From: a virus
Lineage: Duplodnaviria > Heunggongvirae > Uroviricota > Caudoviricetes
Length of the DNA: 23,604 nucleotides
Reading direction: 5' to 3' (one strand)
IMG/VR virus record: IMGVR_UViG_2529292985_000014
Location: 1 to 23,604 of that record
Shown here: piece after piece, positions 1-23,604 of the stretch
How positions within the stretch are numbered: the stretch's first letter is position 1
How the letters are laid out: every line of letters begins with the position of its first letter
Made by a program: the position numbers and the translations under genes
The notes under the pieces: generated by a model
Told to the model about the DNA's origin: nothing
The model's database searches: none
The model's input: the letters and a program-made list of their open reading frames with translations, nothing else

Positions 1-80
1 TTGCTGTTCCCGTCACCTTGCTAAATTAGTTTTCTAACATATTTTATTAGTTTGATGACGGTATCGGAAGATGCAATAAA

Positions 81-110
81 CAAAAAACCCGCTAACTGGC
101 GGGTTTTTAT
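81..110. terminator. Bidirectional rho-independent terminator closing the leftward accessory operon
   Basis: A-tract 81-87, stem AACCCGC (86-92) pairing with GCGGGTT (99-105), loop TAACTG, then T-tract 104-108. Reads as hairpin plus U-run on both strands. Lies just past the last minus-strand ORF (ends 115). Confidence 0.6.
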
Positions 111-114
111 GCAA

Positions 115-429
115 TTACTGTGTTGCAGCCTGATAAATAAGATACGAGATAAATACAGGTACGATGGCCCATTGCAGCAATGAAAGTAGCCTCATTACTG
201 TTATTGGGGTAACTCCATCCACGTATTGTTTCTCTGACATTTTCCCTAACCAACTAACCGACAACAGTGCCGAGTTTTCACCCAATTCCAGCTCTCTGAG
301 CGCTTCACGGATTAACGGCGCTGTCACAGCCTTAACCGGTGTGCTCAACGTGATACTCCGCGTCCTCCCCGCATCGTCAGCGAACGCCAGACTCACATAA
401 TATTTTTTGCTCAATGTACAAACTCCCAA
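115..429 (-). CDS. Hypothetical small protein with hydrophobic C-terminal segment; last gene of the accessory operon
   Basis: 104-aa ORF in the track. No ATG near the 5' end. A more likely start is TTG at 414-412, overlapping the upstream stop as TTGA (coupling). C-terminus LLSLLQWAIVPVFISYLIY looks like a membrane anchor. Terminator follows. Confidence 0.4.
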   Translation of the reverse strand: MGVCTLSKKYYVSLAFADDAGRTRSITLSTPVKAVTAPLIREALRELELGENSALLSVSWLGKMSEKQYVDGVTPITVMRLLSLLQWAIVPVFISYLIYQAATQ

Positions 430-611
430 TCATCAGCGCTTGCACTTTCCGGGGTTATGTGAACCTTATCGCCAGTAACAATATTGCGAGCTTCAAAACT
501 TCCATTGATACGTTTCGAGATCTCAATACATAGAGCCTGCTGCCATGAGCGACGACGAGCGATAGCATTAGTTCCTGCAGGGATAAGTTCTGCCACGTTA
601 AGTAAACGCAA
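411..611 (-). CDS. Hypothetical 66-aa protein
   Basis: ORF with TTG start and GGAG about 9 nt upstream. Sits 14 nt downstream of the VRR-NUC stop. No recognisable motif. Confidence 0.35.
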   Translation of the reverse strand: MRLLNVAELIPAGTNAIARRRSWQQALCIEISKRINGSFEARNIVTGDKVHITPESASADDWEFVH

Positions 612-625: not shown

Positions 626-1120
626 TTAATCAAGACAAACATACTCCGTGATAGCTTTTATGGCTTCAGCGGCACTGCGCGCCTCAAAGCAGTAGTAACC
701 GGCTTCTGTGAGGCGCGTCATCCAGACGAGTTGTTCGGGAGTCAGGCGATTTCTCCCATGTTTCATCTCAATGCGCATTCCGTGGTATCCCCCACAAGCA
801 AGGTCTATAGAAAGATCGGGATATCCCTTCTTTTGGCCCTCTGCCACCATTTTTATTGCCGTCCTTATGCCTCGCAGGCCACCGTTTGGAGTGGCGTGAG
901 TATGCTCATACACATAACGCATATTGCGATACATCCAGTCCAGGACGCGAACCTGCTCGTAATGCTCATGGTTCCTTTTGATTAGATCTGGATTTTTCTC
1001 CAGTTCTCTAAGAGCTGCGGCATGTGGGGATGTTTCAGAATATTCACTGCGACGCCTTCTCTTTCGCGCTATTTTTCTAACACACCCATTGATAGTAAAT
1101 ATGCAAAATAATAACAACAA
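626..1120 (-). CDS. VRR-NUC domain (PD-(D/E)xK) nuclease with basic N-terminal extension
   Basis: Translation contains PNGG...GYPDLSIDL...GMRIEMK...RLTPEQLVWMTRLTEAGYY, matching the VRR-NUC pattern (G-x-PDL, E-x-K, LTPEQ..W) as I recall it. Only in-frame starts upstream of the domain are TTG 1120 or 1117, with no Shine-Dalgarno, so the start is uncertain. Confidence 0.55.
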   Translation of the reverse strand: MLLLFCIFTINGCVRKIARKRRRRSEYSETSPHAAALRELEKNPDLIKRNHEHYEQVRVLDWMYRNMRYVYEHTHATPNGGLRGIRTAIKMVAEGQKKGYPDLSIDLACGGYHGMRIEMKHGRNRLTPEQLVWMTRLTEAGYYCFEARSAAEAIKAITEYVCLD

Positions 1121-1264: not shown

Positions 1265-1519
1265 TTATATTTTATCCTGTTCGGATAATTCTTTGATTGT
1301 CTTGTCGATTGCGATCAACCAACCTTCATAGGTTAAATCATCAACAAGTTCTACCAACTTATCATCGGTGTGAGGAAAGTATATCCAGCTCCAGTTCGCA
1401 GGGTTTTCTGCTTTTCGCAGCGTAAAAACCTTCTTGTATCGGTGGAACTCAAGGACATACCCCTTCGATATGGAATATCCCTTTAGGTCTTCGACCGTAA
1501 ACCTACGATTCTTTCGCAT
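1265..1519 (-). CDS. Hypothetical 84-aa protein (occupies the position I recall for P1 lxc)
   Basis: ATG start 2 nt after the stop of the upstream 144-aa ORF (TAG-CC-ATG), suggesting coupling. No motif recognised. Confidence 0.4.
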   Translation of the reverse strand: MRKNRRFTVEDLKGYSISKGYVLEFHRYKKVFTLRKAENPANWSWIYFPHTDDKLVELVDDLTYEGWLIAIDKTIKELSEQDKI

Positions 1520-1521: not shown

Positions 1522-1956
1522 CTACCCCATGATTCGATATTTCTCTACAGACTCGTCGTAACTTGTGTACACGTATGGCTCTGTATCATCGGCATAAGGT
1601 GCGACTTCCAGAGCATGAACAGGATTGTATACCGCGTCATTTTCCAGGCGATCGCTCGAATACAGATGCCCAGCCAAAACCGTAAGCGCCGGGCGACTCA
1701 TTTTGTAGATCTCTGCCACATCGCTATCTACAACTTGTCCAAATGATATGTCGCCGCGCTCCAGCAATAACGTTTTAAGCGCAGGCCACCACGGCCCATA
1801 AAGGTGATAAAGCTGTGGATCTCGTTTCAGCCTTTCCACCATGCCATTCAGATATGCATCCAGAAATGCCTCTTCACTCCTGCCATTGAGCGCCTGCGGC
1901 AAAATGTCCTCAAGGTAGGATTCCGTTGGTTTTACTGTGTCGATCAATGTTGTCAT
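1522..1956 (-). CDS. Hypothetical 144-aa acidic protein immediately downstream of darB (position I recall for P1 ulx)
   Basis: ATG start. Its AGAGG Shine-Dalgarno lies inside a hairpin CGGCCTC-TTTC-GAGGCCG (about 1963-1980) that sits between the darB stop and this start. Acidic, aromatic-rich sequence with no known motif. Confidence 0.45.
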   Translation of the reverse strand: MTTLIDTVKPTESYLEDILPQALNGRSEEAFLDAYLNGMVERLKRDPQLYHLYGPWWPALKTLLLERGDISFGQVVDSDVAEIYKMSRPALTVLAGHLYSSDRLENDAVYNPVHALEVAPYADDTEPYVYTSYDESVEKYRIMG

Positions 1957-1992
1957 TTTAATTCGGCCTCTTTCGAGGCCGCTCCATATCTG

Positions 1993-4900
1993 TTAAGCCG
2001 CCGCTTCAATGATTTTACGCACTTCATCAATTGAATAGCGCGTCGATACCATCCAGGCCGGACGGTCAAAGTCCACATCGGCAACCGGGTTAACTTCGAA
2101 GTTCCAGAAACGCCCACCGATTTTCTTGATGGCATCTTTTGCGTTGCGAATAGATGAAGATCCGGGCATATCTGCAATGAGATAAACAGCACCAGCGTCT
2201 TCACTTACGCTCCACCAGCGACCGCGGACACGTGCTTTGGCGCGAATAGGCTTATCGTTTACCACGATAATGTAATCATCATTTGCTGCCTCGTCAGCCT
2301 TATTCTCAGCAGCATCAGCCTGTTCTTCCCGTTCAGTCTTAGCCGCCGCAAGACGTTCAGCAATCTCTGACTCCGTAGCGCCACTATTTTTAAGCGACAC
2401 AAAGTCATCCCACGTTGCAGATTTCAGAGCATCAGGCAACTCTTCCACATACCCGCCCGCTTTTAAGGCGTTAGCATGGCGTATAGCCATCCCGACAAGA
2501 CGATTCAAGCTATCTGCATCTGCGAAATCATCACGGGTAATGCTTTTATCCTCAAATGCATGAATTAACGCCCCCGCTTTAATCCAGACTGTTGCAGATG
2601 TTTCAAGCGGATTATCGGCATTAGAAATGCTTAGTTGCGCACTGTAAACTGACTGATCTGCCAACGAGGCAAGTGACGCCCAACCATCTGCATCACTTTG
2701 CATTTTGTACTGATCAAACAGCGCATCACGCCATGCATTTAGCGCCATGCGTGTTTTCTCAATTTTGGTTGTGATTTTGGACGTTCGCAGTTGTTCGAAC
2801 ATCTGCGAAATCTCCGAACCATTGGTGAAGGCTTTCATGCGCCCCTGGAAATCGCGGAAAGAAAGCACGCCTCGCCAGTACGTTTCCAGGCCTTCTCCAT
2901 TTGGCTTGCGGAACAAGCTGCGGACATCTTCCTGAGTCACTTTTTCAAGTGAACGCCCGGAGAGATCGCGCCCTGCCATCCAGCCATCGAACGCCTTGAC
3001 CACATCATCCATAGTGGCCTGAGCGCCCCATGCCTCCATACCTTGCTCATAATCGAAGCCAAACAATGCACGGAGAAAACCTTCTGCCTCTGAAATACGA
3101 AGTGGGTTATCACCTGTCTGGATTTTCGCGACTTCGCGTTTTAATGCTTCGTCGTTTACATCAGGATAAATCCATTGTTCAGGTGCTATCTCGTCACTTC
3201 CAGATGCGCTAATTTTTTGACCAATCATCCCGCCATAGGTAAAGGCCATTTGAATCTGACCATTGGCGTTACGATAAGCCCAATAGTTTACATCCGGTGC
3301 TCCTTGCCAACCGCCACGATCTCTCCCAGTTACCCGCATAACACCGCTACGAATAGCGTCATAGAATTGATCGCGAGAAAGAGAGGTTGAAAGCTGGTGG
3401 CTTTGAACACCACGTGCCGCTATTTCTCGTGATTCAGCCACCCCCTCTTCAAATGTTACCGCTTCAACCACTGAGTCAAACGGTAATGTCATGGTTGAGC
3501 CAGGAGAACGAGAGTGGCGACTTGCTCTATCCAGCCAGGCGACGCGGCAGGTGTATTGCGCTTTTTCGCCCTCAATTTGTGTCACGCGTACAATCGCCGT
3601 TGTCTCGTATTCAGCATCAATGACTGCACGGTAGTAACTACCTTTATGCAACAGGATGTTCTTGCCAGTGCGCATATACTCCTGCGGGTTCTGAATAACA
3701 TCGATACTGATATCCAGCACACCAGACTTAATAGCACGCTCCACATCACCACGAGAGCGTTTCATAACAGTATCCGCGTCCTTCGCCCTGGTGATTGCAA
3801 ATCGCAATTCACGCACTCTTTTTTTAGCTTTGCTTAGTGCTGAAAGCGTATATTTCTGTCCGTTTTTGTTGGTGCCGCTCTTAATCAGTCCATCCAGATC
3901 ACTCTGGTATCGTTGCGCCTGCTCCATCGCGCTTTTCAGTTCTGCCTCCATCATGCCGATATCCTTCCCGGCAGCATTCGCCGCTTTCAGGTAGTTATCG
4001 AGAGCATTATTGGCTTCGCGTTGCGCTTTAAGTCGCAGGCGTTCCTCACGTTCTTTCGACTGACGAGCCATAATTGCGCGTCGTTCTTCCGGATTTGCCG
4101 CCAGCATAATGGCGCGCTCATCAGCGTCATCCGCATCACCATTGGCGATCTCTGACATATCGGAGGTCATCACCATCTTGATCCAGTCTTTCTTACGTTT
4201 AAGCGTATCCAGACGGAAGTCATCGAATGTGCCTTTGCCACAATAATAGTGAACATTAACCTTCTCTTGCGGAGAACCTACGCGCGCACCGCGCCCATTT
4301 CGTTGGTCGATACTGGCAGGAGTCCAGGGTAGTGTCAGGTGGTGAATATCGGTCGTTCCAATATGCAGGTTGATACCTACTTCGGCTTTCTTGTTACAGA
4401 TAATGATTTGCGTGCGCCCTTCGTTATAGTCGGCAGCAATACCTTCCATCCCCTCAAGGCCAGCATCATTTTTAGCAGAGAGATAATCCTCATATTGGGC
4501 CAGTTTACTGTAGTAGGTTTCCCATGCGCCTTCTTTGTATTCACCGTCTTTGTTTGGCGTCGGTTCGGTCGGTTTTTTGACCTTTTTCAGCTTAACACCA
4601 CCAGCCTGGCTAACAGTCGTAGCATTGATAATGCCTATCTCCTGCTCTGGCATTTGCAACGCACTGGCAATGATGCGACGTAGTTTCTGGTGCTGGGCTT
4701 TCTCGTCGATAAAGATAATTTGCTTACCGTTCTTAAGCCCTTCACGAAGGTTCTCGATAAGTGCGGCATACTTAGGCGGGATCGGGTGTGACACCTGTTT
4801 CATGTCGATGCCTGCATCAGCAATTGCCTTGAGTATTTCAGCCTCCAGGTCAATGCTGGCACGCAATTCGACGTGATTTGGATGCTCACTAAATGTTGTA

Positions 4901-7900
4901 GCTACAACCTTGCTGGTACGGGTACTGACCAGGCCTCCGATCGCATCCTCCTCTGCTTCTTCTGCATCGTCTGCCGCTTTCCCACCAGCCACTTTTGGTA
5001 GGTTATTAGCTATAGACTTCACCTGTTCAGTAAGTTCTACAGGGAACTGGAATGTGATAGCGCTGGCGTAAAGATCCGGGTCGATAGCGACCTTATCCAT
5101 GTCGCGAATGATAGAGAAAATGAAATCATCCGGTTTCCCGCGAGTGATATTGCCTTCATCATCGACAGTGACGTCATCACCACGACTTAACTCCTGCGCG
5201 CGTTTACGAAGCTCTTCATAAGCTGCTTGCTGCTCTGGAGTCATTGGGATCTGCAAGGTGTTTTCGACGATATCCGGGATTTTTACCGTTGCACCAACAT
5301 CGGAAGCCGTTTTAAGCGTTGTCCAGCGGTGGAAAATGCCACGCAGACCATCAAGGTTCTGGAAGCCCACCAGCCCCTGTTTCTCTTCCACTTCGCCAGA
5401 AATTTTCTGGACCTGAACAGTGGCTGTTTTACCGAACACTCGCACAAAGTCGTCAGGGGTAATAATCCCCATGTGCATCCACTCGTGCTGAGGGATCACC
5501 GTTGACAGCATGTTGAAGGCGTCAATAGGGCTATTAACCAGCGGAGTTGCTGTCAGCATTACGACGCCGCGCCCATTGTGACGTTTCATCATGTACGCAG
5601 CTTTTACAGCCATGTCACGGGCCATTTTGGATACCGCCGGATTAGGTAAATATGCCAGTTGCCCCGCTTCACGCCCGGCACCAAAGGAGTTGCGGTAGTT
5701 ATGCCCTTCGTCGGCAATTACGCTATCGAAGTTCATATCCTCAAAGTACGGGATATTCTGCTTCTTCGCTGTACCGGTATTCGCGGCCTGGTCCTTAATC
5801 TTGTTCTTCTTCTGCGCATCACGGTGCTTGCCTGACGCCAGGTCAAGACGCCCCATTTCGGCGGCATTAAAGACAGCCTGCTGTGAGTTTTCTCCGATGG
5901 TTTCATCGCGCAACGGGATAGATGCGAACTGCTCTTTTGTCATGATGACCGTTCGCCAGTTCGACGATGGGATCATGTTCATGCGTTGAGCGATAACGGC
6001 ACTGGCGGATTCTTTAACAACATTACGGGTGATCGGATTGCCGTCGTTATCAAGTCGCGGGGTGCCGTCCTGGTCGAGCACTGGGGCAGTCTGAATATTT
6101 CCGTCACCATCGCGCACTTCGTCCAGACCGATAAACATCATATTGGCGAAGGCATCTGCACTGTAGAAGCTCTGTGCCTCGTGATACCAGTTCTGGTATA
6201 CGGCCTTTGGAACAACGATACAGGTACGTTTGGTTCGCCCGGTTTCAAAGTTATAGGCTTCCAGTGCCAGCGCGGTCGTCGTTTTACCCAAACCAGTTCC
6301 GAATCCCATAATCCCGCGCCCATCTTCCGACAGACGACGAACTTCTTCGTTCTGGTAAGAAAGCGGTATACGTTTCCCGCTGATGCCTTCAAGCCCCAGG
6401 GGTGCGTCTGAATGGGTAAATGGAATATAACCGTTAAAGGCGTCGTTATAATCGCGGGCGATCTGGTCTGCCTGCGGGTGAGTTCTTAACCAGTCGTTAA
6501 AACTCGTCTCAAGCTGGGCGATTTTGTCCAGGTACTCGTTAGCGTTCTGTCCGCGCGGTTTAACACCGTTCAGGTAGTTCTCAAGCTGATTCAGGAAGCC
6601 ATCTTTGTTATTCGCTTTCTTGAACTCGTTCCCGTTTTTGCCGTTTACGGTTCGTAGCTGGTAGCCAGTAAATACCCCGTCCTTACCTTCGTAATCGTCC
6701 GGGGATACCAGAATGCCGTTCTCAACCTTAAGGTCGGGTTCTGTATACTTAAACTCGTCATAGCCCTGCTCTGCCAGGAACTCTTTTATCAGGCGGCGAT
6801 CCAACCACCGTGCGTTAAGGTTTACCGTGACTTTGTTCAGCGGTGTAAACGTGCGTTTCTCTTCGATTTTTGAAAGCTGGCGCTCAAAGTTGGCCTTCCG
6901 CTCTCCTGTGGACGCGTCTCGCCAGCCCACCAGCAGTGCCACTTTTGATTTAATATCACCGCTAGTGGCACGGCCCATCGGTAGCAGGCAACCATATCCA
7001 TCAATAGCGATATCGTCGAATTTCGCCAGGTATTCCTGTGCTTGATCGTCGTCTTCTGGCAGTTCGCCTTTAAACGCCTCGCGGAAGTCATCAAGATTGA
7101 TAGGATTAAGGGCAACATCGCTGAAAAGGTGTGTCACAACCTGTTCCGGACGAGTGAAATCAATACCAGCAGCCCCTTTGCTAACATCAAGCCGTCCGGA
7201 CAGCAGATCGGATGCTTCACCGTCCTGATTGACGTTCCCGGTGAATGTCAGCCAGTTCTTCGCGCCCGCTTCGGTAATGTCGTTTAGCTTAATGGCGTGT
7301 GGTGGGCCATATTTAGCAACTTCGGCAGCCGTCAGACGTGCGGCATCAGCCAGTTCATCATCGACGTTTTCACCAAGGTTACGCTTATCCAGCGCTTTAT
7401 TGATAAGTTGCCCGATCAGCGCACCGCGCATAATGCGCTCACGGTCTTTTTCGCGTTGTTTCCCAGCAAAGCGAATCATTGCCGCTACTTCATCACTGAT
7501 AACCGATGGATAGTCGGAAGCGATCGCGGATATCTGCCCCCATGACAGAGCCAGAATGCCGTTTGTTGATTGGAACGTTGTTTGCAGATCACCGAATGTC
7601 GAAACACCATATCGGCTTACATCAAGTACGGAGGATTTGGTTGTCGCATCTTTAACCCATTGCAGGCCATCAAACTCGTGCCAGATGCCACCTACAAGGC
7701 GCTTGTCTCCTACTTTGGCGCCCTGCCATGCCTGAGTAGTTACGCCAAGCAAATCCCAATTAATGCGGCTTTCAAAGCGGCGCGATAGAGCGGTTTTCAT
7801 CGACTCATTGGATACACGACCGTCCTTTTTCACCACCAGAGTATTGCGGAAGCTGGTACGTTCCATGTCGCCGTAAACAAATCGCTTCCCTTCGGTTGTA

Positions 7901-8910
7901 AACCATTTTCCTTTGAGGAAGGTATCCCAAAGGACGTTTGCCGATTTGAGTGTTGAATCATCCGTGTCGGGGATCATCTCCAGGAAGGTTTCCGGGTGTT
8001 TACGCAATACCCATACGTCCACCACGGTATCTGTACCGGATTCGCTGAACGTACCGGAAGGCATACGATGTGCGCCCAAAAATTCCGCTTTACGGCTGAC
8101 TTTATCGCGCAATTTTTTATATTTCGTACCATCGGTCATGCCATTCGGCACCACCAATACGATAAGCCCACCAGGCTTAACCTTGTCGATCGTGCGCAGC
8201 ACAAAGTAATTGCCAACGTTCTTCTCGTTTGCATATGCCGGATCAAGCCCGGCGACACCGGAACGCCCTTCACCAAACGGTACGTTACCAACAGCGTGAT
8301 CATACATTGCGTCTTTCGCCGCCAGCGCCTCAAACGCCCCGATATTCACATCGTCTTCCGGGTGCAAAAGCTGGTTTATTCGACCGGAAATCGGAGACAG
8401 TTCGGCGCTGGTCATTATCATGCCCTGTCGTTTTGTCTCCTGGAAAATACCTGTGCCCGCTGATGGTTCCAGTACGTGCCCGCCATCAATACCGTAGTCA
8501 GCAAACAGATCCCATATACCTTCAGCCATAAACTGTGGCGTGTAGTATTCGTATTGGCTGCCCTCACCATCTGTCAGGCCGCCTTCACCGGTATACCCGG
8601 CAAGAATCTGACGCTGTTCGTCAGTTAATTTCGCCCCATCGAAGCCGGGCGGAAGGGAATTAAGAAGCTCTACTGCGGCGTTGTTTGCTGCCCGCCGTGT
8701 TTTTTGAATGCTGACACCATCGACTTTCTTAACGCCAAAGGTCGCAACAGCACGTAATTTATGCAACCGACTAACAATTTCAATCAGTTCGCCTAAGCTG
8801 GAGGCTTCACTGATTGAATGAAGTAGTTTATCCAAAGGATTACCCCCTCTAAACCGTAAAAAATCCGCTATGCGGTACGGTTGAGAGGGTATGGAGAATG
8901 TTATTTTCAC
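1993..8910 (-). CDS. darB: DarB-like giant protein: N6-adenine DNA methyltransferase domain plus SF2 helicase core plus long C-terminal region
   Basis: 2305-aa uninterrupted ORF. MTase motif I VLEPSAGTGIF and motif IV GNVPFG (NPPF-type), roughly nt 7900-8560. Helicase Walker A GFGTGLGKTTT (about nt 6270), motif II VIADEGH (about nt 5710), motif III LTATP, motif VI QRNGRGARVG (about nt 4290). The track start is GTG 8910 with no SD. TTG at 8835-8833 is preceded by AGAGGGGG at 7 nt and may be the real start. Confidence 0.8.
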   Translation of the reverse strand: MKITFSIPSQPYRIADFLRFRGGNPLDKLLHSISEASSLGELIEIVSRLHKLRAVATFGVKKVDGVSIQKTRRAANNAAVELLNSLPPGFDGAKLTDEQRQILAGYTGEGGLTDGEGSQYEYYTPQFMAEGIWDLFADYGIDGGHVLEPSAGTGIFQETKRQGMIMTSAELSPISGRINQLLHPEDDVNIGAFEALAAKDAMYDHAVGNVPFGEGRSGVAGLDPAYANEKNVGNYFVLRTIDKVKPGGLIVLVVPNGMTDGTKYKKLRDKVSRKAEFLGAHRMPSGTFSESGTDTVVDVWVLRKHPETFLEMIPDTDDSTLKSANVLWDTFLKGKWFTTEGKRFVYGDMERTSFRNTLVVKKDGRVSNESMKTALSRRFESRINWDLLGVTTQAWQGAKVGDKRLVGGIWHEFDGLQWVKDATTKSSVLDVSRYGVSTFGDLQTTFQSTNGILALSWGQISAIASDYPSVISDEVAAMIRFAGKQREKDRERIMRGALIGQLINKALDKRNLGENVDDELADAARLTAAEVAKYGPPHAIKLNDITEAGAKNWLTFTGNVNQDGEASDLLSGRLDVSKGAAGIDFTRPEQVVTHLFSDVALNPINLDDFREAFKGELPEDDDQAQEYLAKFDDIAIDGYGCLLPMGRATSGDIKSKVALLVGWRDASTGERKANFERQLSKIEEKRTFTPLNKVTVNLNARWLDRRLIKEFLAEQGYDEFKYTEPDLKVENGILVSPDDYEGKDGVFTGYQLRTVNGKNGNEFKKANNKDGFLNQLENYLNGVKPRGQNANEYLDKIAQLETSFNDWLRTHPQADQIARDYNDAFNGYIPFTHSDAPLGLEGISGKRIPLSYQNEEVRRLSEDGRGIMGFGTGLGKTTTALALEAYNFETGRTKRTCIVVPKAVYQNWYHEAQSFYSADAFANMMFIGLDEVRDGDGNIQTAPVLDQDGTPRLDNDGNPITRNVVKESASAVIAQRMNMIPSSNWRTVIMTKEQFASIPLRDETIGENSQQAVFNAAEMGRLDLASGKHRDAQKKNKIKDQAANTGTAKKQNIPYFEDMNFDSVIADEGHNYRNSFGAGREAGQLAYLPNPAVSKMARDMAVKAAYMMKRHNGRGVVMLTATPLVNSPIDAFNMLSTVIPQHEWMHMGIITPDDFVRVFGKTATVQVQKISGEVEEKQGLVGFQNLDGLRGIFHRWTTLKTASDVGATVKIPDIVENTLQIPMTPEQQAAYEELRKRAQELSRGDDVTVDDEGNITRGKPDDFIFSIIRDMDKVAIDPDLYASAITFQFPVELTEQVKSIANNLPKVAGGKAADDAEEAEEDAIGGLVSTRTSKVVATTFSEHPNHVELRASIDLEAEILKAIADAGIDMKQVSHPIPPKYAALIENLREGLKNGKQIIFIDEKAQHQKLRRIIASALQMPEQEIGIINATTVSQAGGVKLKKVKKPTEPTPNKDGEYKEGAWETYYSKLAQYEDYLSAKNDAGLEGMEGIAADYNEGRTQIIICNKKAEVGINLHIGTTDIHHLTLPWTPASIDQRNGRGARVGSPQEKVNVHYYCGKGTFDDFRLDTLKRKKDWIKMVMTSDMSEIANGDADDADERAIMLAANPEERRAIMARQSKEREERLRLKAQREANNALDNYLKAANAAGKDIGMMEAELKSAMEQAQRYQSDLDGLIKSGTNKNGQKYTLSALSKAKKRVRELRFAITRAKDADTVMKRSRGDVERAIKSGVLDISIDVIQNPQEYMRTGKNILLHKGSYYRAVIDAEYETTAIVRVTQIEGEKAQYTCRVAWLDRASRHSRSPGSTMTLPFDSVVEAVTFEEGVAESREIAARGVQSHQLSTSLSRDQFYDAIRSGVMRVTGRDRGGWQGAPDVNYWAYRNANGQIQMAFTYGGMIGQKISASGSDEIAPEQWIYPDVNDEALKREVAKIQTGDNPLRISEAEGFLRALFGFDYEQGMEAWGAQATMDDVVKAFDGWMAGRDLSGRSLEKVTQEDVRSLFRKPNGEGLETYWRGVLSFRDFQGRMKAFTNGSEISQMFEQLRTSKITTKIEKTRMALNAWRDALFDQYKMQSDADGWASLASLADQSVYSAQLSISNADNPLETSATVWIKAGALIHAFEDKSITRDDFADADSLNRLVGMAIRHANALKAGGYVEELPDALKSATWDDFVSLKNSGATESEIAERLAAAKTEREEQADAAENKADEAANDDYIIVVNDKPIRAKARVRGRWWSVSEDAGAVYLIADMPGSSSIRNAKDAIKKIGGRFWNFEVNPVADVDFDRPAWMVSTRYSIDEVRKIIEAAA

Positions 8911-9471: not shown

Positions 9472-9495
9472 AAAAAGCCCCGACCAGGCCGGGGC
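9471..9495. terminator. Hairpin terminator, functional mainly on the minus strand
   Basis: A-tract 9471-9476, stem GCCCCG (9477-9482) pairing with CGGGGC (9490-9495). The minus strand gets hairpin plus U6. The plus strand has no T-run after the hairpin. Confidence 0.5.
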
Positions 9496-9573
9496 ATCAC
9501 GCTTCAAGTCACGATCCAATCATTACCGACTATATCAGCCGTCGATAAATCAACTTCCCGGATCTGGAGTCCA

Positions 9574-9798
9574 TCAGTGTGCCTCCGCAATGCTGGGATT
9601 GGTAATATTGCGATACCAGGGATTAGTGTTTGGTTGTGGGGAAGTAGAGAAACGACCAGTAAGAACACCATACTGATCAGGGATCAGAGAACGGGCTTCT
9701 TTTTCGGTTGCGGCAATTGCGAAGTGATCGCAGTGTTTTTGCAGGGAGTGGAAACGCCAGATGAATTCTGGACGTGAGCAAGGATTGGCATTAACCAT
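9574..9798 (-). CDS. Hypothetical 74-aa protein
   Basis: ATG start with GAGG about 9 nt upstream. Minus-strand terminator about 80 nt downstream. No recognisable domain. Could be spurious. Confidence 0.3.
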   Translation of the reverse strand: MVNANPCSRPEFIWRFHSLQKHCDHFAIAATEKEARSLIPDQYGVLTGRFSTSPQPNTNPWYRNITNPSIAEAH

Positions 9799-12386: not shown

Positions 12387-14069
12387 TTAATTGCTCATCA
12401 CAAATTTTGCAAAGTTTATTAACTGTTCTGGCGTCCAGTTTTCCGGATCGTCACCGGACGACAACGGCGCGGATTCGTACATACCATGCTCGTTGTTTTG
12501 CTCTGATTCATTCGCCTTAAACTCTTTGATCATGGTGTTGAGAGTGTCATCGTCGATGTGCAACTGCTCGGTAAACAGATAACGCATAAACGCGTCACTA
12601 CCAGCCAGTTTCGGGTTGTTCTGGATCTGGTCCATAATTTGGGAGATGACAGCAACAAAGTTGGCGCGTGCATCCAGTTCCCGGTTTTCCTCTTCCTGAA
12701 TAGCAGTGTTCATTGAGTTGAATTGCACGTCATAAGGGCGGTTTTTTTCGGTGTAAACCTTGCCGTATTTATAAGCGAGGTGAATGTCCAGAAGCTGATA
12801 AATAGTTCGCTGGGCGGCCTGTCTGATCCAGTTCGCACGCAATGCAGCCTGGATAGCAGTTTGCTGCCAGCCGCCTTCTCCAAGCCCTCCGCTCATCTGA
12901 TCAGCCCAGCCAAGCATTGTTGCGTCAATGCCGAGGCTTGCAGCAAGCTGCCGGAGGTGAAACATAACGTCTTCGATACCACTGATATCTGCGGGTATGG
13001 ATTGCGTATCAATGGTGATGCCGTTCTTCCCGTCTCCCATAACAGGTATCAGATGGTTAAGCACAGTTGGAATAGCGTTGGCATTAATCGACCTTTGCGC
13101 CACCAGGTCACTATGACGCTTCAATGCCTGGCTGACGCCACGCGTATAGTTCGCCGCATTAACCGGGTCAAGTGTGTTCGTCGTAAGAGCAATCAGGCGG
13201 TCAATTTTGGCTGCATTATTTCGCGTTGATTTCAGCGCGGCGAGCGAAGCACATAAATTAAGGTAAGGTTCATAGCTGTATTCCAGGAATGAAGTTCCGT
13301 AATTCTGCGTCTCCATTAACGGCTTATCAGCTTGATCACTTAACAGTGAGTACCCTTTTGTGCCGTAGCTAACCGGAATAACTTTATGCTGTGGCGTCCA
13401 ATAGGGATTTTTCATGGAAACCAGATTCCACGGTTCGGTTATTACTCTGCGCAAACTATGCGTATCCAGGATGTAATCACCACTGAATCCAACCAGCTGG
13501 CTACCGCGATAAAATTCCTGGACGAAATGTGGCAGAGTGTAATAACTGGACTCAATGCCTGTTATCCCCCTGCCCTGTTCAGCATAAGGTCGGACATAAG
13601 ACACCCCAAAGATCGCCATGATCATGGCCCATGAAGGAAGTCCGTCATTAATCATCGCCCCCAAATCAGCGGTTAACTCTTCACATCTACTTACTGCCTC
13701 GGCATCGGAACCATCCTTTGGCGAAAGGATGAATGCCTGTCCGTTTTTTTTTGAAGGCGCAAGCGCATGTGCAATGTGAATGTTTAAAGCCGTCGAGATA
13801 GTCGGGCTTTTAGCCATCGTTTCCAGGATGTTGTACTTTTGCAGGCGCTCGCCGGGCAGTTCAGCGGATAAAGAAATTGAATCTGCCTCACTCGTCATGC
13901 CATCGCTATTGCTCCCCAGGATGCCTGGACGTAAAGCAGACAGGCCGGAACGAGCAACGACACTATGTCCGCTCGTAAAAACGACCGGATCGGCGGGCGT
14001 AACATCACCACCGTTGAAGGCTTTCTTCAATGCTGACAGAAAGCCTTTGTTTTTGTCTTTCGTTGCCAT
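12387..14069 (-). CDS. Putative portal-like virion structural protein
   Basis: 560-aa ORF with ATG start preceded by GGTGA. Size and acidic C-terminus fit a portal protein. It directly precedes the protease-like gene. No diagnostic motif verified. Confidence 0.3.
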   Translation of the reverse strand: MATKDKNKGFLSALKKAFNGGDVTPADPVVFTSGHSVVARSGLSALRPGILGSNSDGMTSEADSISLSAELPGERLQKYNILETMAKSPTISTALNIHIAHALAPSKKNGQAFILSPKDGSDAEAVSRCEELTADLGAMINDGLPSWAMIMAIFGVSYVRPYAEQGRGITGIESSYYTLPHFVQEFYRGSQLVGFSGDYILDTHSLRRVITEPWNLVSMKNPYWTPQHKVIPVSYGTKGYSLLSDQADKPLMETQNYGTSFLEYSYEPYLNLCASLAALKSTRNNAAKIDRLIALTTNTLDPVNAANYTRGVSQALKRHSDLVAQRSINANAIPTVLNHLIPVMGDGKNGITIDTQSIPADISGIEDVMFHLRQLAASLGIDATMLGWADQMSGGLGEGGWQQTAIQAALRANWIRQAAQRTIYQLLDIHLAYKYGKVYTEKNRPYDVQFNSMNTAIQEEENRELDARANFVAVISQIMDQIQNNPKLAGSDAFMRYLFTEQLHIDDDTLNTMIKEFKANESEQNNEHGMYESAPLSSGDDPENWTPEQLINFAKFVMSN

Positions 14070-15613: not shown

Positions 15614-15982
15614 TTACCCGGCATAACCGTTGGCTTTCACCCAGCTTATGGTCTGTTCTTTAGCCTGCTCCAACGTAAGGAACTCGCCAACATAGTTTGA
15701 GATCCCACGCAGCGCATCAATAAATTCCATTTGTGTGGACTTTGTGAACACACCGCCCAGGAAGTCAGTCACTATCTTAGGGACTTCATCTACAACAGGA
15801 TCAGTCTGTTGTTGCGGTTCCGCTGCCGGTTGCGCGGCAGTCCCCAGGCCCAATTTCAGCATCACATCAACAATCTGCTTACCAATGGTGACGCGTTGCA
15901 ATACTGGCGCAGTTTTCTGCGCCTGCATTAGATCTGATAGCTCTTTACCTAATTTCAGGCGGTCTAAAACAGAGATGGTCAT
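15614..15982 (-). CDS. DdrA-like small protein encoded directly downstream of the DarA-like gene
   Basis: 122-aa ORF. Its ATG overlaps the upstream stop (TAATG), indicating coupling. Assignment by position only. Confidence 0.4.
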   Translation of the reverse strand: MTISVLDRLKLGKELSDLMQAQKTAPVLQRVTIGKQIVDVMLKLGLGTAAQPAAEPQQQTDPVVDEVPKIVTDFLGGVFTKSTQMEFIDALRGISNYVGEFLTLEQAKEQTISWVKANGYAG

Positions 15983-18520: not shown

Positions 18521-18956
18521 CCCAGCCTCCTTCACGCTTTTCGATCGTAAACTGGCGCTCTATGCAGTCATTGATAGGGAAAATGCGATAAAGCGGATTC
18601 AGTCGGCAGTTACCGTTAGTCAATGTGACTTTCAGATCCCACTTCGTTGGCTCAAGATATTTCGTATCGATGAGCAAATACTCTTCTCTCTCACCGCGTT
18701 TTGAGGCGTCAACTGGTCGTGTTTTCCCTGAAATAACCACAGATGGATTTTTCAGGTCTTGCAACCAATATTCGATTTGAGCATTGCTGACCCAGCTTCG
18801 CTTAACACGTAGCGAAACAGGAAATGCTATAGCAGATTCTTTCACTACAGCGTCACCAATACTCAAAATCTCAACACTCTTGCGACGAAAAATGAAACGG
18901 TCAATGATGGCAACAAATGCCATGATAAAAATGAAATAATTCCCAAAGTTACCCAT
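18510..18956 (-). CDS. LydB-like membrane-anchored protein (candidate antiholin or lysis regulator)
   Basis: 148-aa ORF. ATG overlaps the holin stop (TAATG). N-terminal hydrophobic segment NYFIFIMAFVAIIDRFIF followed by a soluble domain. Confidence 0.45.
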   Translation of the reverse strand: MGNFGNYFIFIMAFVAIIDRFIFRRKSVEILSIGDAVVKESAIAFPVSLRVKRSWVSNAQIEYWLQDLKNPSVVISGKTRPVDASKRGEREEYLLIDTKYLEPTKWDLKVTLTNGNCRLNPLYRIFPINDCIERQFTIEKREGGWDVK

Positions 18957-19282
18957 TATTTCTCTCCACCTTTTCCCCCATTCGCTATTACGCTTAAGAG
19001 ATTCAAGACGTTACTAGCTCTGGACTTCAAGCCCTGTAAAATTTCTCTTCCGTTGTTACTGGCAATCAGAACAACGCAGAAAATGATACCTTCAGGCCAT
19101 TCCTGGCTAACCGCCACCCCATACCCCGCAAGCCCGGCTGTTACCGCAGTAAACAATTCACTCGCAAGATTGAGCAGGGACGCAGAAATGCGCCCGTCTC
19201 TAACTCCGAGAAGGAATACGCCGGTTCCACTTAGTAGGGATGTTATGACTACTACAGCCAGATTTTCATAATCTGCAAACAT
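18956..19282 (-). CDS. lydA: Holin (LydA-like), three predicted transmembrane segments
   Basis: 108-aa ORF with strong SD GGAGGGG before the ATG. Hydrophobic stretches LAVVVITSLLSGTGVFLLGV, LFTAVTAGLAGYGVAV and IIFCVVLIAS. Basic C-terminus. First gene of the operon. Confidence 0.55.
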   Translation of the reverse strand: MFADYENLAVVVITSLLSGTGVFLLGVRDGRISASLLNLASELFTAVTAGLAGYGVAVSQEWPEGIIFCVVLIASNNGREILQGLKSRASNVLNLLSVIANGGKGGEK

Positions 19283-19294
19283 ACCCCTCCAGAA

Positions 19295-19387: not shown

Positions 19388-19948
19388 ATGCTTATTGGAT
19401 ACATTCGCGTATCAACTAATGACCAAAACACAGCTTTACAACGAAACGCCCTTGAAAGCGCAGGATGTGAGCTAATTTTTGAGGATAAGGCGAGCGGCAA
19501 AAAGGCTGAACGCCCTGGGTTAAAAAAGGTTCTCCGTATGCTTTCCAGAGGTGACACCCTGGTCGTATGGAAGTTAGATCGTCTTGGGCGCAGTATGCGT
19601 CACTTGGTTGTGCTGGTGGAAGAGCTTCGTGACATAGGCATTAACTTCCGGAGTCTCACTGACTCCATCGACACCAGTACACCAATGGGGCGCTTTTTCT
19701 TTCACGTAATGGGGGCGCTGGCAGAAATGGAACGTGAGCTTATCGTTGAACGTACACGCGCTGGACTTGATGCGGCTCGCGCAGAAGGTCGTATAGGTGG
19801 GCGTCGGCCTAAATACCAAGAAGAAACATGGCAGCAAATGCGGCGATTGCTGGAGAAGGGAATCCCCCGTAAGCAGGTTGCAATCATCTATGATGTGGCT
19901 GTTTCCACGCTTTATAAGAAGTTTCCGGCGTCATCATTTCAATCCTAA
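19388..19948 (+). CDS. cin: Cin/Gin/Hin-family serine DNA invertase
   Basis: 186-aa ORF. N-terminal MLIGYIRVSTNDQN with the catalytic Ser. Conserved VVWKLDRLGRS and FHVMGALAEMERELI. C-terminal HTH GIPRKQVAIIYDVAVSTLYKK. SD AAGGGGGAA before the ATG. Confidence 0.85.
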   Translation: MLIGYIRVSTNDQNTALQRNALESAGCELIFEDKASGKKAERPGLKKVLRMLSRGDTLVVWKLDRLGRSMRHLVVLVEELRDIGINFRSLTDSIDTSTPMGRFFFHVMGALAEMERELIVERTRAGLDAARAEGRIGGRRPKYQEETWQQMRRLLEKGIPRKQVAIIYDVAVSTLYKKFPASSFQS

Positions 19949-19965
19949 ACCTTGGTTTAAGAGAA
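19940..19965. other. cix-like recombination crossover site
   Basis: CAATCCTAAACC-TT-GGTTTAAGAGAA: two imperfect 12-bp inverted half-sites around a 2-bp core at 19952-19953. About 9 of 12 matches per half-site to the gix/hix-type half-site TTATCCAAAACC as I recall it. Overlaps the cin stop codon (19946-19948). Confidence 0.5.
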
Positions 19966-19995
19966 CTCGGTACCAGCGGTGAAAAGATCCCCCTG

Positions 19996-22857
19996 TTGAG
20001 CACGGCTAACACATGGAGTTCACGCCAGACTTTCAACGGCGGGATCACCGGGGCGCTGACAGGGAACGCCGACACCGCGACGAAACTTGCGACGGCAAGA
20101 AACATCAACGGTGTTAAATTTGATGGTTCTGTGGACATTTCGATACCAACAATTACGTCCAGAGGGCGTGTTACTGCGCTCACCGGTACAACACAAGGTG
20201 CTGCTACTGGATTGCAAATGTATGAGGCGTACAACAACGGCTATCCTTCTGTTTACGGGAATGTGCTTCATCTTAAGGGCGCAACGGCAGTTGGTGAAGG
20301 TGAGTTGTTCATAGGTTGGAGCGGTACAAGTGGCGCTCATGCACCTGTACATGTACGTTCGCGACGAGATACTGATACAGCCAGTTGGTCAGAGTGGGCG
20401 CAGGTCTACACATCGAAGGATTCCATCCCTGGTGTAAATACCACGGGCAACCAGAACACAACCGGAAACGCGGCGTCTGCAACGAAATTACAAACGGCAA
20501 GAACTATTGGTGGTGTTTCATTTAATGGCACCGCAAACATCGACCTGCCGGGCGTGAATAAAACAGGCAATCAGAGCACTACCGGCAATGCAGCTACAGC
20601 CACAAAACTGCAAACAGCACGCACCATTAATGGGGTTTCATTTGACGGAACGGCTAATATTTCTCTGTCACCGGCAAATATTGGTTGCCCGGCATCTCCT
20701 ACTGGTTGGCTTGAAACAGGTGATAATGGAGCATCAATAACAACAGAGCAATTAGTGACTCTGCTACGAGATAATGGTGCTTTTAATGCAAAGGTATGGA
20801 TAGCGCGTTGTGCCTGGGCGTATGCAAATAGTGCATCCATACCAGACAGCGAAACAGGATGCGGCATTATTCCACTGGCGGGTGCTGTGATAGAAGTATT
20901 CAGCAATAATACCAACAATTACACCATTCGAATAACAACGGCAACGACGACAAGTGTATCTGGCGCACTCACTAATGCTGAATTTATCTATGTGTCTAAT
21001 GGCACAAGTTATTCACCAGGATGGCGCAGAGCGTATAACACTAAAAACAAACCTACTGCGGCTGATGTCGGAGCTTTACCACTATCTGGAGGAGCGTTAA
21101 CTGGCGGATTAACTGCTGCTGGCGAGATTATTTCCAAATCGGCGAATGGTCTGCGCATTGCCTATGGCAACTATGGATTCTTTATCCGAAACGATGGTTC
21201 AAACACATATTTCATGTTGACCGATTCGGGTAACAGCCTGGGAACCTATAATAGGTTAAGGCCGCTTATCATTAACAATGCCAATGGTACTGTTACGATC
21301 GGTAATGGACTCAATGTTACTGGCGGCATCAATGGTAGTTTGAACGGTAATGCTTCAACAGCTACGAAGTTGCAAACTGCTAGAAAAATAAGCGGCGTGT
21401 CTTTTGATGGTTCTGCTGATATAACACTAACAGCTGAAAATGTATCTGCTTTTGCTCGACGCGCTACTGGAACTTATGACGATACTAGTGGTGCGGTCCC
21501 GTGGAATGCCGAATCAGGTGCGTATAATGTTACACGCTCCGGGGCTTCTTATATCGTTGCAAATTTTTATACAGGCGTAGGTAGTTGTCGGACTCTCCAA
21601 ATCCGAGCGCATTATAAAAATGGTGGATTGTATTACCGTTCATCACGTGATGGCTATGGGTTCGAAGAGGACTGGACTCAGATATATACTAAAAAAGACA
21701 GCATCCCTGGTGTGAATACAACTGGTAATCAGAACACTACTGGCAATGCTGCAACTGCAACAAAACTGCAAACAGCACGCACAATAGGCGGAGTGTCATT
21801 CGATGGTAGTGCCAATATCGACCTGCCAGGTGTGAATAAAACAGGTAATCAGAACACTACCGGTAATGCAGCGACAGCGACCAAGTTGCAGACAGCATGT
21901 ACTATCAACGGCGTCTCGTTTGATGGTTCTAAAGATATTGAACTTAACCCACGGTCTATAGGCACGATCAACTCCACAACAATGTCTTTTAGTGGTGGTG
22001 CTGGATGGTTCAAACTGGCAACTGTAACCATGCCACAGGCCAGTTCCGTGGTTTACATAAGCCTGATTGGTGGTGCAGGGTTTAACGTTGGCTCCCCGCA
22101 GCAAGCAGGCATCTCTGAGCTGGTTCTGCGTGCAGGAAATGGAAATCCAAAAGGTATTACTGGTGCATTATGGCGACGGACCTCGGTTGGATTTACTAAT
22201 TTTGCATGGGTGAATACATCCGGTGATACCTATGATGTTTATGTTGAAATAGGTAATTACGCCACAGGTGTTAATATTCAGTGGGATTATACCAGTAACG
22301 CCAGCGTAACGATTCATACATCACCAACTTATACAGCGAATAAACCAACAGGCCTGACAGATGGAACTGTATATGTAATTTACAGTTCGCACATTAAACC
22401 GACTGCTGCTGAGGTTGGGGCGTTGTCATTATCTGGCGGTCAATTGAATGGTGCACTGGGCATCGGAACATCCAGTGCTCTTGGTGGTAACTCGATTGTT
22501 TTGGGTGATAATGACACGGGATTTAAACAAAATGGCGACGGGTATCTGGATGTTTATGCTAATAACGTCCATGTTATGCGCTTTGTCTCCGGCAGTATTC
22601 AAAGTAATAAAACCATAAATATTACAGGTCGTGTTAATCCCTCAGATTACGGTAACTTTGATTCCCGTTATGTGAAAGATGTTCGCCTGGGTACGCGTGT
22701 TGTTCAATTGATGGCGCGTGGTGGTCGTTATGAAAAAGCCGGACACGCAATTACCGGATTAAGAATCATTGGTGAAGTAGATGGCGATGATGAAGCCATC
22801 TTCAGGCCAATACAAAAATACATCAATGGCACATGGTATAACGTCGCACAGGTGTAA
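19996..22857 (+). CDS. Tail-fibre variable cassette (Sv-type C-terminal part of tail fibre protein S), currently not fused to a constant part
   Basis: 953-aa ORF that the track starts at TTG with no SD. The same frame is open upstream to 19918, across the cix-like site. At least six copies of the phage fibre repeat GNA-x-TATKLQTAR-x-I-x-GV-x-FDG. Confidence 0.75.
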   Translation: MSTANTWSSRQTFNGGITGALTGNADTATKLATARNINGVKFDGSVDISIPTITSRGRVTALTGTTQGAATGLQMYEAYNNGYPSVYGNVLHLKGATAVGEGELFIGWSGTSGAHAPVHVRSRRDTDTASWSEWAQVYTSKDSIPGVNTTGNQNTTGNAASATKLQTARTIGGVSFNGTANIDLPGVNKTGNQSTTGNAATATKLQTARTINGVSFDGTANISLSPANIGCPASPTGWLETGDNGASITTEQLVTLLRDNGAFNAKVWIARCAWAYANSASIPDSETGCGIIPLAGAVIEVFSNNTNNYTIRITTATTTSVSGALTNAEFIYVSNGTSYSPGWRRAYNTKNKPTAADVGALPLSGGALTGGLTAAGEIISKSANGLRIAYGNYGFFIRNDGSNTYFMLTDSGNSLGTYNRLRPLIINNANGTVTIGNGLNVTGGINGSLNGNASTATKLQTARKISGVSFDGSADITLTAENVSAFARRATGTYDDTSGAVPWNAESGAYNVTRSGASYIVANFYTGVGSCRTLQIRAHYKNGGLYYRSSRDGYGFEEDWTQIYTKKDSIPGVNTTGNQNTTGNAATATKLQTARTIGGVSFDGSANIDLPGVNKTGNQNTTGNAATATKLQTACTINGVSFDGSKDIELNPRSIGTINSTTMSFSGGAGWFKLATVTMPQASSVVYISLIGGAGFNVGSPQQAGISELVLRAGNGNPKGITGALWRRTSVGFTNFAWVNTSGDTYDVYVEIGNYATGVNIQWDYTSNASVTIHTSPTYTANKPTGLTDGTVYVIYSSHIKPTAAEVGALSLSGGQLNGALGIGTSSALGGNSIVLGDNDTGFKQNGDGYLDVYANNVHVMRFVSGSIQSNKTINITGRVNPSDYGNFDSRYVKDVRLGTRVVQLMARGGRYEKAGHAITGLRIIGEVDGDDEAIFRPIQKYINGTWYNVAQV
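20403..20690 (+). repeat. Internal tail-fibre module, copy 1
   Basis: Encodes YTSKDSIPGVNTTGNQNTTGNAASATKLQTARTIGGVSFNGTANIDLPGVNKTGNQSTTGNAATATKLQTARTINGVSFDGTANISL. Near-identical at protein level to copy 2, diverged at synonymous positions. Confidence 0.7.
21684..21965 (+). repeat. Internal tail-fibre module, copy 2
   Basis: Encodes YTKKDSIPGVNTTGNQNTTGNAATATKLQTARTIGGVSFDGSANIDLPGVNKTGNQNTTGNAATATKLQTACTINGVSFDGSKDIEL. Lies 1281 bp downstream of copy 1, in frame. Confidence 0.7.
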
Positions 22858-23388
22858 ATGATGCAGCATTTAAAAAATATTAAGTCTGGAAATCCTAAAA
22901 CAAAAGAACAATATCAGCTAACAAAGAATTTTGATGTTATCTGGTTATGGTCCGAAGACGGAAAAAACTGGTATGAGGAAGTGAAAAACTTTCAGCCAGA
23001 CACAATAAAGATTGTTTACGATGCAAATAATATTATTGTCGCCATCACCAAAGATGCCTCCACGCTTAACCCTGAAGGTTATAGCGTCGTTGAGGTTCCA
23101 GATATTACAGCCAACCGCCGCGCTGATGATTCCGGTAAGTGGATGTTTAGGGACGGAGCTGTGGTTAAACGGATTTATACGGCAGACGAGCAACAACAAC
23201 AGGCCGAATCACAAAAGGCCGCATTGCTTTCCGAAGCTGAATCAGTCATCCAGCCGCTGGAACGCGCTGTCAGGCTGAATATGGCAACAGACGAGGAGCG
23301 CACACGACTGGAAGCATGGGAACGCTACAGCGTTCTTGTAAGCCGCGTGGATACGGCAAAGCCAGAATGGCCACAAAAACCTGAGTAA
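22858..23388 (+). CDS. Tail fibre assembly protein (U / Tfa-type chaperone)
   Basis: 176-aa ORF. ATG abuts the tail-fibre stop (TAAATG). C-terminus ...[27 protein letters not shown] is typical of Tfa-family proteins. Confidence 0.7.
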
Positions 23389-23415
23389 AAATAAGGCCCG
23401 ATAACGGGCCTTTTC
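23389..23415. terminator. Bidirectional terminator between convergent tail-fibre assembly genes
   Basis: A-tract, stem GGCCCG (23395-23400), loop ATAA, stem CGGGCC (23405-23410), then T-rich run. Fills the gap between the two convergent stops at 23388 and 23416. Confidence 0.6.
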
Positions 23416-23604
23416 TCATTCTGGTTGTTCGGGAAACGTTACTGGCAGGATGGAGGTATCTGTAGATTCTACTTTCTGCGCATATAGCATCCACGCGGTT
23501 AATTTCTGTTTATTCTCATCGGAAATGATGCCCAGCCGTAGCTGTGAGTCCCACAGTTGGGTTTTATCCCTGACAAGTTGCAATAGGCTTTGCTTTTCAT
23601 TTTC
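23416..23604 (-). CDS. Partial second tail fibre assembly gene (U'-type), 3' end only; 5' end lies beyond the window
   Basis: Reverse-complement translation of 23416-23604 gives 63 codons with no stop: ENEKQSLLQLVRDKTQLWDSQLRLGIISDENKQKLTAWMLYAQKVESTDTSILPVTFPEQPE. It ends with the same W-x-Y...V...P-E-x-PE pattern as U. Not in the ORF track because the start is outside the window. Confidence 0.65.
   Translation of the reverse strand, partial: ENEKQSLLQLVRDKTQLWDSQLRLGIISDENKQKLTAWMLYAQKVESTDTSILPVTFPEQPE

Follow-up and report, generated by a model that had tools for sequence, protein, structure and literature searches.

The 23,604-nt stretch analysed here (IMG/VR record IMGVR_UViG_2529292985_000014, positions 1–23,604; hereafter the window) is very probably a portion of a D6-type, P1-like phage-plasmid, whose departures from the P1 map are not local module replacements but belong to an architecture that is fixed in the D6 lineage. 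The window is the entire contig AERM01000058.1 of the short-read draft assembly GCA_000193895.2, which is that of Shigella dysenteriae CDC 74-1112 (PMC6397287), and amounts to about one quarter of a D6-type phage-plasmid. The lineage-level differences from P1 have already been published. The novelties at the level of this element emerge from the gene-by-gene comparison of accessory loci recommended in an initial annotation of the window, which proves fruitful against D6, not P1: an allele exchange in the anti-restriction gene darB, a deletion of the anti-repressor gene ant, divergent patches in ddrB, ddrA and darA, and a mosaic tail fibre. These novelties are ordinary recombination products among co-circulating phage-plasmids. 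Relative to D6, homologous recombination with related phage-plasmids and a single deletion at a microhomology have reshaped the element.

Placement of the window in the D6 lineage

When the whole window is compared with phage records by megablast, Escherichia phage D6 (MF356679 / NC_050154) is the sole good match, covering 86% of the window at 91.8% identity. P1 and P7, against which the initial annotation had proposed a whole-window alignment, cover 8% each (P7 by megablast only), in cin, pieces of the tail-fibre genes and c4-icd. In PLSDB, at least 80% of the window is matched at ~92% identity by 86 E. coli and Salmonella plasmids, each ~90–95 kb long. The same coverage is reached in 68 complete E. 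coli genomes, and among the best-covering records listed, all of the matching places are on plasmids. The D6 layout, in which the CHAP hydrolase gene, c4-icd and repL separate darB from pro, is found in ~86–108 D6-like plasmids; D6-like plasmid prophages are known from E. coli and Salmonella, for example pYU39_89.

The gene order is that of D6: pmgS-pmgR-orf11-pmgM-orf13-ulx-darB, followed by the hydrolase, icd-c4-repL-pro-prt-ddrB-ddrA-darA-hdf-lydB-lydA, and cin, with two gaps. Nearly all of the genes lie on the minus strand. The encoded proteins are 92–99% identical to their D6 counterparts, in the same order, with the exceptions of DarB (87%) and the variable tail-fibre part, Sv. All of the D6 genes that are represented are full length and free of frameshifts, at 87–99% protein identity. 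The DNA identity to D6 is 98.4% in positions 1–1918, 97.5% in 8623–9574, 97.4% in 9575–14122, and 96.0% in 14174–19962. Searches of the window for tRNA genes and tandem repeats and an inspection of its base composition revealed nothing notable.

Several of these features have been described at the level of the lineage. PMC6799933, which summarises Gilcrease & Casjens 2018, reports that the D6 lineage has a region related to ImmI, containing c4, icd and an anti-repressor gene, as well as a second c4/icd region, and that it lacks Lxc. According to the same source, a peptidoglycan hydrolase adjoins ImmI and is proposed to be part of the lysis module, and D6-like genomes diverge most in the region of tail-fibre inversion.

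The initial annotation had viewed the window as a P1-like backbone with replaced modules. The kinship with P1 is borne out: the window contains the six Dar genes, lydA and lydB, cin together with the cixL site, and a portion of the invertible tail-fibre segment, as judged from Pfam, PHROGs and the identity to D6 and P1. The picture of a P1 or P7 genome with a few swapped modules has to be given up, since the whole layout is that of D6. The window is neither near-identically collinear with P1 nor devoid of P1-family homology. The contig is best filed as an S. dysenteriae D6-type phage-plasmid, not as a P1 variant, and this reclassification has little importance beyond correct filing.

Exchange of the darB allele and loss of ant

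A three-way alignment at the sites that distinguish D6 from the E. coli plasmid pHX138.33gt_1 (NZ_CP091837.1; hereafter pHX138) resolves the window into D6-type sequence up to position 1918, pHX138-type sequence from 1927 to 8614, and D6-type sequence again from 8623. Inside the central block, ~1,149 informative sites are of the pHX138 type and 12 are of the D6 type. Besides darB from about codon 75 onwards, the block includes the 36-bp spacer and the first ten codons of ulx. This darB allele is present at 95% identity or more in 7 of 118 plasmid records, among them pHX138, four from S. dysenteriae and one from E. fergusonii, and it is 99.6% identical to that of pHX138, 97.8% to that of S. dysenteriae 93-119, and 95.9% to that of E. 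fergusonii NZ_CP137859.1. When the two DarB alleles are compared, the methylase and helicase parts are 92–100% identical in amino acid sequence, while the C-terminal ~500 residues are 58–75% identical.

Outside darB, the pHX138 backbone is only 71–80% identical to the window. Plasmids of the pHX138 type, which include S. dysenteriae plasmids of 79–80 kb such as NZ_CP026816.1, share an overall D6-like gene order with the window and, like it, lack orf23/24 between prt and ddrB. On these alignments, almost the whole of darB was exchanged for the allele of a sister lineage, one that is in circulation in S. dysenteriae too. The darB locus thus provides a clean, breakpoint-resolved case of a whole-gene exchange of an anti-restriction allele between related phage-plasmid lineages with common hosts. 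In NZ_CP026816.1, the plasmid of S. dysenteriae 93-119, repL, the terminase gene and darA (annotated as "head protein") are each annotated as two open reading frames (ORFs), which suggests a decaying phage-plasmid.

The second change affects the immunity-I module between the CHAP gene and repL, which had been overlooked in the initial annotation. The stretch at positions 13568–14396 of the D6 segment L001, containing a Rha/Roi-type anti-repressor gene (ant) and the 5′ two-thirds of orf17, is missing from the window. The deletion starts at the icd stop/ant start, with the icd stop codon retained, and its junction lies at TCCAT (9570–9574), a microhomology found at both of the D6 flanks. No immunity-I anti-repressor gene is present downstream of icd in the window, nor did tblastn detect an Ant1 or KilA homologue. 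The site between the hydrolase gene and repL is thereby known in three states: full in D6, with c4-icd only in the window, and empty in the pHX138 type, where a gap of 58 bp (NZ_CP091837.1, L005 25357–25415; NZ_CP026816.1, L011 23539–23597) holds no c4-icd-ant.

None of the 79 plasmids and none of the 57 E. coli genomes matching the flanks carries the junction, the sampled full-length plasmid matches all span ~1,785 bp including the Rha-family gene, and an exact junction search yielded no match in the IMG/VR viral contigs or in the GTDB species-representative genomes. The exact 32-mer across the junction is present in the metagenome contig OBRH01000019.1 (87,277 bp), which is an independent, near full-length D6-type element. 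An 11.9-kb part of it is 98.3% identical to window positions 5049–16956 and shares the darB allele and the right-hand breakpoint of the window. The differences are concentrated in ddrB (window-equivalent 14250–15750), where OBRH01000019.1 is of the pHX138 type; the ant-less lineage appears to keep exchanging dar alleles. The D6 genome has a second module with icd and a Rha/Roi/KilA-type anti-repressor gene at 74.0–75.2 kb (L007 38023–39179), far from repL. Therefore, the loss of the repL-linked ant may be buffered, provided that the source element also has this second module. The window documents the loss, in nature, of one icd-ant module out of two.

Could the darB block and the ant deletion be an assembly chimera of a D6-type and a pHX138-type phage-plasmid present in one draft? 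The short-read origin of the assembly, the occurrence of pHX138-type plasmids in S. dysenteriae, and the position of the breakpoints where both lineages are nearly identical would all allow it. However, OBRH01000019.1 shares with the window the darB allele, its joining to the D6-type right flank and the deletion junction, at 99.7% identity or more over 5049–12750, and the darB block contains no mixed signal. Since this contig is independent and shares the junction, it argues against a chimera, which we consider very unlikely, and marks the ant-less variant as a lineage. The possibility that we are dealing not with a functional phage-plasmid but with a remnant in decay that cannot be induced deserves more credit, but is still unlikely. 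It would account for the loss of ant and of part of orf17, and it has parallels in the split repL, terminase and darA genes of NZ_CP026816.1, the plasmid of the sister lineage, and in a defective 75-kb D6-like variant known in Salmonella (PMC6799933). In contrast, the intact state of the D6 genes in the window does not look like decay, and with a second icd-ant module in D6, the loss of one ant need not disable the element. P1 ant mutants are viable.

The remaining alternative, that the CHAP and helix-turn-helix (HTH) genes took the place of single accessory modules (IS1, ssb and lyz) in a P1/P7 (Punavirus) genome, is hardly credible at all. It draws on the closeness to P1 of Cin (98%), U (97%), cixL (20/20) and the c4-icd DNA (89%). 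Against it stand the 8% of the window to which P1 and P7 align by megablast, the 29–64% identity of the other proteins, a gene order that differs from that of P1 on the genome scale, and the failure to find P1-type C1 operators or late promoters in the window; the collinearity of the whole layout with D6 by itself already refutes a P1 backbone. We therefore retain the placement of the window in the D6 lineage. The following points weigh against this interpretation. The contig comprises 23.6 kb only, and the plasmid replicon, partition genes, c1, terminase genes and most of the tail genes lie outside it; judging by their positions in D6, the D6-type replicon, the partition genes, the C1 repressor gene, Cre/rox and the glnS cargo gene would all fall beyond the contig. 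The left breakpoint in darB (1918/1927) is seen in the draft contig only, as the compared part of the metagenome contig begins at window position 5049. In PHROGs, moreover, a "baseplate hub / tail lysozyme" family is the best match of the CHAP protein, so that a virion-associated role is possible.

A further-reaching interpretation, which we regard as doubtful, is that the window and OBRH01000019.1 represent a maintained D6 sub-lineage, which exchanges its Dar genes as cassettes with the sister lineage and has lost the repL-linked ant, with selection focusing the recombination on counter-defence. If so, the darB swap, affecting mainly the C-terminal ~500 residues, would alter the spectrum of restriction evasion, and the loss of ant would alter the induction or superinfection behaviour.

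Candidate operators, tail fibre and remaining genes

A 16-nt motif, AATTARWTTTCTAAYA, occurs at three sites in the window against 0.10 expected, although this enrichment is circular, as the motif was derived from those three sites. When two mismatches at most are allowed, the motif is found at 11 sites in the complete D6 genome against 0.66 expected (NC_050154 positions 199, 4632, 9067, 10316, 21261, 22467, 64130, 75980, 76631, 80723 and 89948). Eight of them are outside the part equivalent to the window: directly upstream of c1, lpa, hrdC-dmt and pdcB, flanking ref, near cre, and near the 3′ end of pmgS. Several of these eight sites coincide with the places of the P1 C1 operators at c1, lpa, dmt, ref and cre. 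Given this distribution, AATTARWTTTCTAAYA is probably the C1 operator of the D6 type, which is akin to that of P1, ATTGCTCTAATAAATTT, without being the same. The candidate consensus could help to annotate the immunity regions in ~100 D6-like plasmids of E. coli, Salmonella and Shigella. An 11-mer common to two intergenic regions, GTATGTGATTT, was dropped as a candidate because its orientation is inconsistent, and no D6-type late-promoter motif was identified in the window.

The window contains cixL and ~3.65 kb of the invertible segment, with the second cix site beyond the contig end, and the Sv part adjoins cin in the switched-off orientation. Over its final 75 residues, the fibre shows 93% identity to D6 S and 87% identity to P1 S. 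U and the fibre end match S-U, not S′-U′, and do so on the minus strand of both the P1 and D6 records. The segment is therefore inverted relative to these records, as a working Cin switch predicts. The Sv part is ~450 amino acids longer than those of P1 and D6, and is a mosaic: by megablast, its pieces have different best matches, namely Cyrano, CMS-2020a, Yersinia P2-like phages, P88 and D108, and only one plasmid covers at least 80% of it. It contains a diverged internal duplication (20392–20648 and 21670–21926, 75% identical, spaced by 1,278 bp), as well as a 78-nt fibre motif present six times within 20061–21938. These repeats suggest that the fibre shaft grew by the internal duplication or insertion of modules. 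A multi-site shufflon within the long Sv ORF, similar to Min of p15B, was rejected: cixL is the sole cix-like site in the window, and the next best has 6 mismatches in 20. The contig breaks on the right within the C-segment, past the 3′ end of the second chaperone gene, and on the left where pmgS begins. Inverted repeats, or a mixture of segment orientations, could explain why the assembly broke off on the right.

The CHAP-like gene and the HTH protein singled out by the initial annotation are both real. The former is the hydrolase gene, with a Pfam CHAP match above the cut-off (E = 2.5e-7), and the latter is RepL. As read from its sequence, the hydrolase is cytoplasmic and has no N-terminal hydrophobic segment. 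By analogy with P1, it most likely serves as the endolysin alongside the LydA holin and the LydB antiholin.

All six Dar components (hdf, darA, ddrA, ddrB, ulx and darB) are intact ORFs. The 3′ end of ddrB (14134–14600) is a third allele, ~80% identical to D6, pHX138 and OBRH01000019.1, and 99% identical to many D6-like plasmids. A patch at 15801–16400, comprising the 5′ end of ddrA and the 3′ end of darA, is 87.6% identical to D6, 93.5% to pHX138 and 99.8% to OBRH01000019.1. An antisense frame in ddrB, 14549–14944(+), encodes 132 amino acids with 61% identity to P1 IddB, which may merely reflect the conservation of ddrB. The D6 genes orf23 and orf24 (DUF4145; L001 18981–19915), which occupy the prt-ddrB spacer, are absent from the window. 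This spacer is contiguous in 88 of 110 D6-like plasmids; contiguity is thus the majority state, and the insertion belongs to D6. The spacer may be a small hot spot for accessory or defence genes.

At the left end, tblastn in either direction detected no similarity of the 115–429(−) product to P1 PmgR (best E = 0.18). Its name in the D6 annotation, "similar to P1 pmgR", is therefore based on position only. The pmgR and pmgM genes would be head-morphogenesis genes.

The remaining functions would follow the P1 paradigm, as reportedly described by Lobocka et al. 2004 and, for the Dar system, by Piya et al. 2017. By this analogy, the Dar proteins would be packaged in the capsid and shield the injected DNA from restriction, while RepL would drive lytic replication under the control of C1. 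The C4 RNA would repress icd translation, Cin would flip the tail-fibre ends, and LydA would release the hydrolase as the endolysin.

Features of the window, with strand and supporting evidence (aa, amino acid identity)
Position	Strand	Feature	Basis
1..16	-	pmgS-like gene, first 16 nt, cut by contig end	Collinear with D6 orf9 (L001 2793-4016); window start = L001 4001
24..39	+	Candidate C1 operator (AATTAGTTTTCTAACA) between pmgR and pmgS	Motif AATTARWTTTCTAAYA; position analogous to P1 OpmgR
115..429	-	pmgR-like ORF (D6 orf10)	97% aa to D6; phrog_9115
411..611	-	D6 orf11 homologue	97% aa to D6
626..1120	-	pmgM	Pfam VRR_NUC; 98.8% aa to D6, 57% to P1 PmgM
1265..1519	-	D6 orf13 homologue	97.6% aa to D6
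1522..1956	-	ulx, Dar component	99.3% aa to D6, 47% to P1 Ulx; PHROG Ulx-like anti-restriction
1927..8614	.	Recombinant darB block, 6.7 kb, in D6-type backbone	99.6% to pHX138.33gt_1 (NZ_CP091837.1) vs 82.6% to D6
1993..8835	-	darB, 2280 aa, methyltransferase and SNF2 helicase, anti-restriction	Pfam SNF2-rel, ResIII, Helicase_C, N6_Mtase; 87% aa to D6, 43% to P1
8986..9471	+	CHAP/TIGR02594 peptidoglycan hydrolase	Pfam CHAP; TIGR02594 E=4e-42; PHROG endolysin / tail lysozyme families; 99.4% aa to D6 orf16
9477..9495	.	GC-rich hairpin terminator between convergent CHAP gene and immI operon	Terminator scan
9504..9574	-	D6 orf17 3′ remnant (70 nt) and 830-bp deletion junction	Alignment to both D6 flanks
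9574..9798	-	icd, cell-division inhibitor, intact	NCBIfam phage_ICD_like; 98.6% aa to D6, 61% to P1 Icd
9846..9931	-	C4 antisense RNA gene	Rfam RF01695, 68.8 bits (gathering score 45)
9999..10051	-	C4 RNA a1/b1 targets	Rfam RF03163, 54.4 bits (gathering score 46.7)
10142..10157	+	Candidate C1 operator upstream of c4-icd operon	Motif AATTARWTTTCTAAYA; position analogous to P1 Oc4
10212..11174	-	repL, lytic replication initiator	97.5% aa to D6, 29% to P1 RepL; PF26868 Phage_P1_RepL; HTH_36 weak, below cut-off
11348..11363	-	Candidate C1 operator upstream of repL	Motif AATTARWTTTCTAAYA; position analogous to P1 OrepL
11375..12373	-	pro, head processing	98.5% aa to D6, 43% to P1 Pro
12387..14069	-	prt, portal	Pfam Portal_T4; 99.3% aa to D6, 50% to P1
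14134..15519	-	ddrB, 461 aa	Pfam ddrB-ParB; 96% aa to D6, 64% to P1 residues 2-442
15614..15982	-	ddrA	PHROG DdrA-like; 92.7% aa to D6, 33% to P1
15982..17907	-	darA, 641 aa	Pfam DarA_N, DarA_C; 95% aa to D6, 39% to P1
17900..18520	-	hdf	Pfam DarA_N; 97.6% aa to D6, 40% to P1
18510..18956	-	lydB, holin antagonist	Pfam LydB; 99.3% aa to D6
18956..19282	-	lydA, holin	99% aa to D6, 45% to P1 LydA; Phage_holin_3_3 weak, below cut-off
19388..19948	+	cin, serine DNA invertase	Pfam Resolvase, HTH_7; 98.4% aa to P1 and D6 Cin
19943..19962	+	cixL inversion site	20/20 identical to P1 and D6 cixL
19953..22857	+	Variable part of tail-fibre gene S, promoterless, ~968 aa, Sv-type end	Pfam Gp34_trimer, gp37_C
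22858..23388	+	U-type tail-fibre assembly chaperone	Pfam Caudo_TAP; 96.6% aa to P1 U, 94% to D6 U, 55-57% to U′
23416..23604	-	Second convergent chaperone (U′ position), 3′ end, 62 aa, cut by contig end	Gene call; Caudo_TAP in L010 1-189

Comparison with P1 and P7

Most of the proteins encoded in the window are 29–64% identical to their P1 counterparts, with the exceptions of Cin (98.4%) and U (96.6%). P1 DdrB has 995 amino acids, and the DdrB of the window corresponds to its N-terminal half. At the DNA level, P1 matches by blastn in patches only: darB (~70%), c4-icd (89%), prt (64%), ddrB (67%), cin with the start of the C-segment (86%), and the Sv tip with U (90%). Taken together, the P1/P7 patches are 64–90% identical, and the genome-wide similarity falls below the level within Punavirus. 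In the practice of the International Committee on Taxonomy of Viruses, a genus is delimited at ~70% nucleotide similarity over the full length.

The lack of IS1, ssb and a T4-type lysozyme gene, as pointed out in the initial annotation, is confirmed: in tblastn searches of the window with P1 Lyz, Ssb, InsA/InsB, IsaA/IsaB, Hxr, LydC/D/E, Ant1, KilA and Lxc, the best E value was 0.16, and the IS1 DNA found no match. The same lack extends to the whole D6 genome for Lyz, Ssb, Hxr, LydC/D/E, Ant1, KilA and Lxc, of which it contains no homologues. With a position weight matrix (PWM) built from 20 P1 operators, no P1-type C1 operator (ATTGCTCTAATAAATTT) scoring 12 or more was found in the window. 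A PWM from 10 Lpa-dependent late promoters of P1 gave one borderline site only, inside darB, and no credible promoter in the window.

The gene orders are likewise distinct. On the P1 map, pmgM/pmgR/pmgS are located at 79–84 kb, ulx-darB at 10–17 kb, prt-pro at 17–20 kb, and c4-icd-ant-kilA-repL at 48–52 kb, while in the window the pmg genes adjoin ulx-darB, and repL and immunity I are placed between darB and pro; the P1 order is scattered or inverted relative to this arrangement. P1 prt-pro is transcribed divergently from darB, whereas in the window it is inverted, so that the neighbouring genes lie on one strand. The P1 succession of darB, prt-pro, lyz, ssb, IS1 and hxr-ddrB-ddrA-darA is not found in the window. 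In common with P1 and P7, the window has the Dar system, LydA/LydB, the Cin/cix inversion of the tail fibre, the immunity I of C4 RNA and icd, RepL, Prt and Pro, and of these shared components, Cin, U and cixL are nearly identical in P1.

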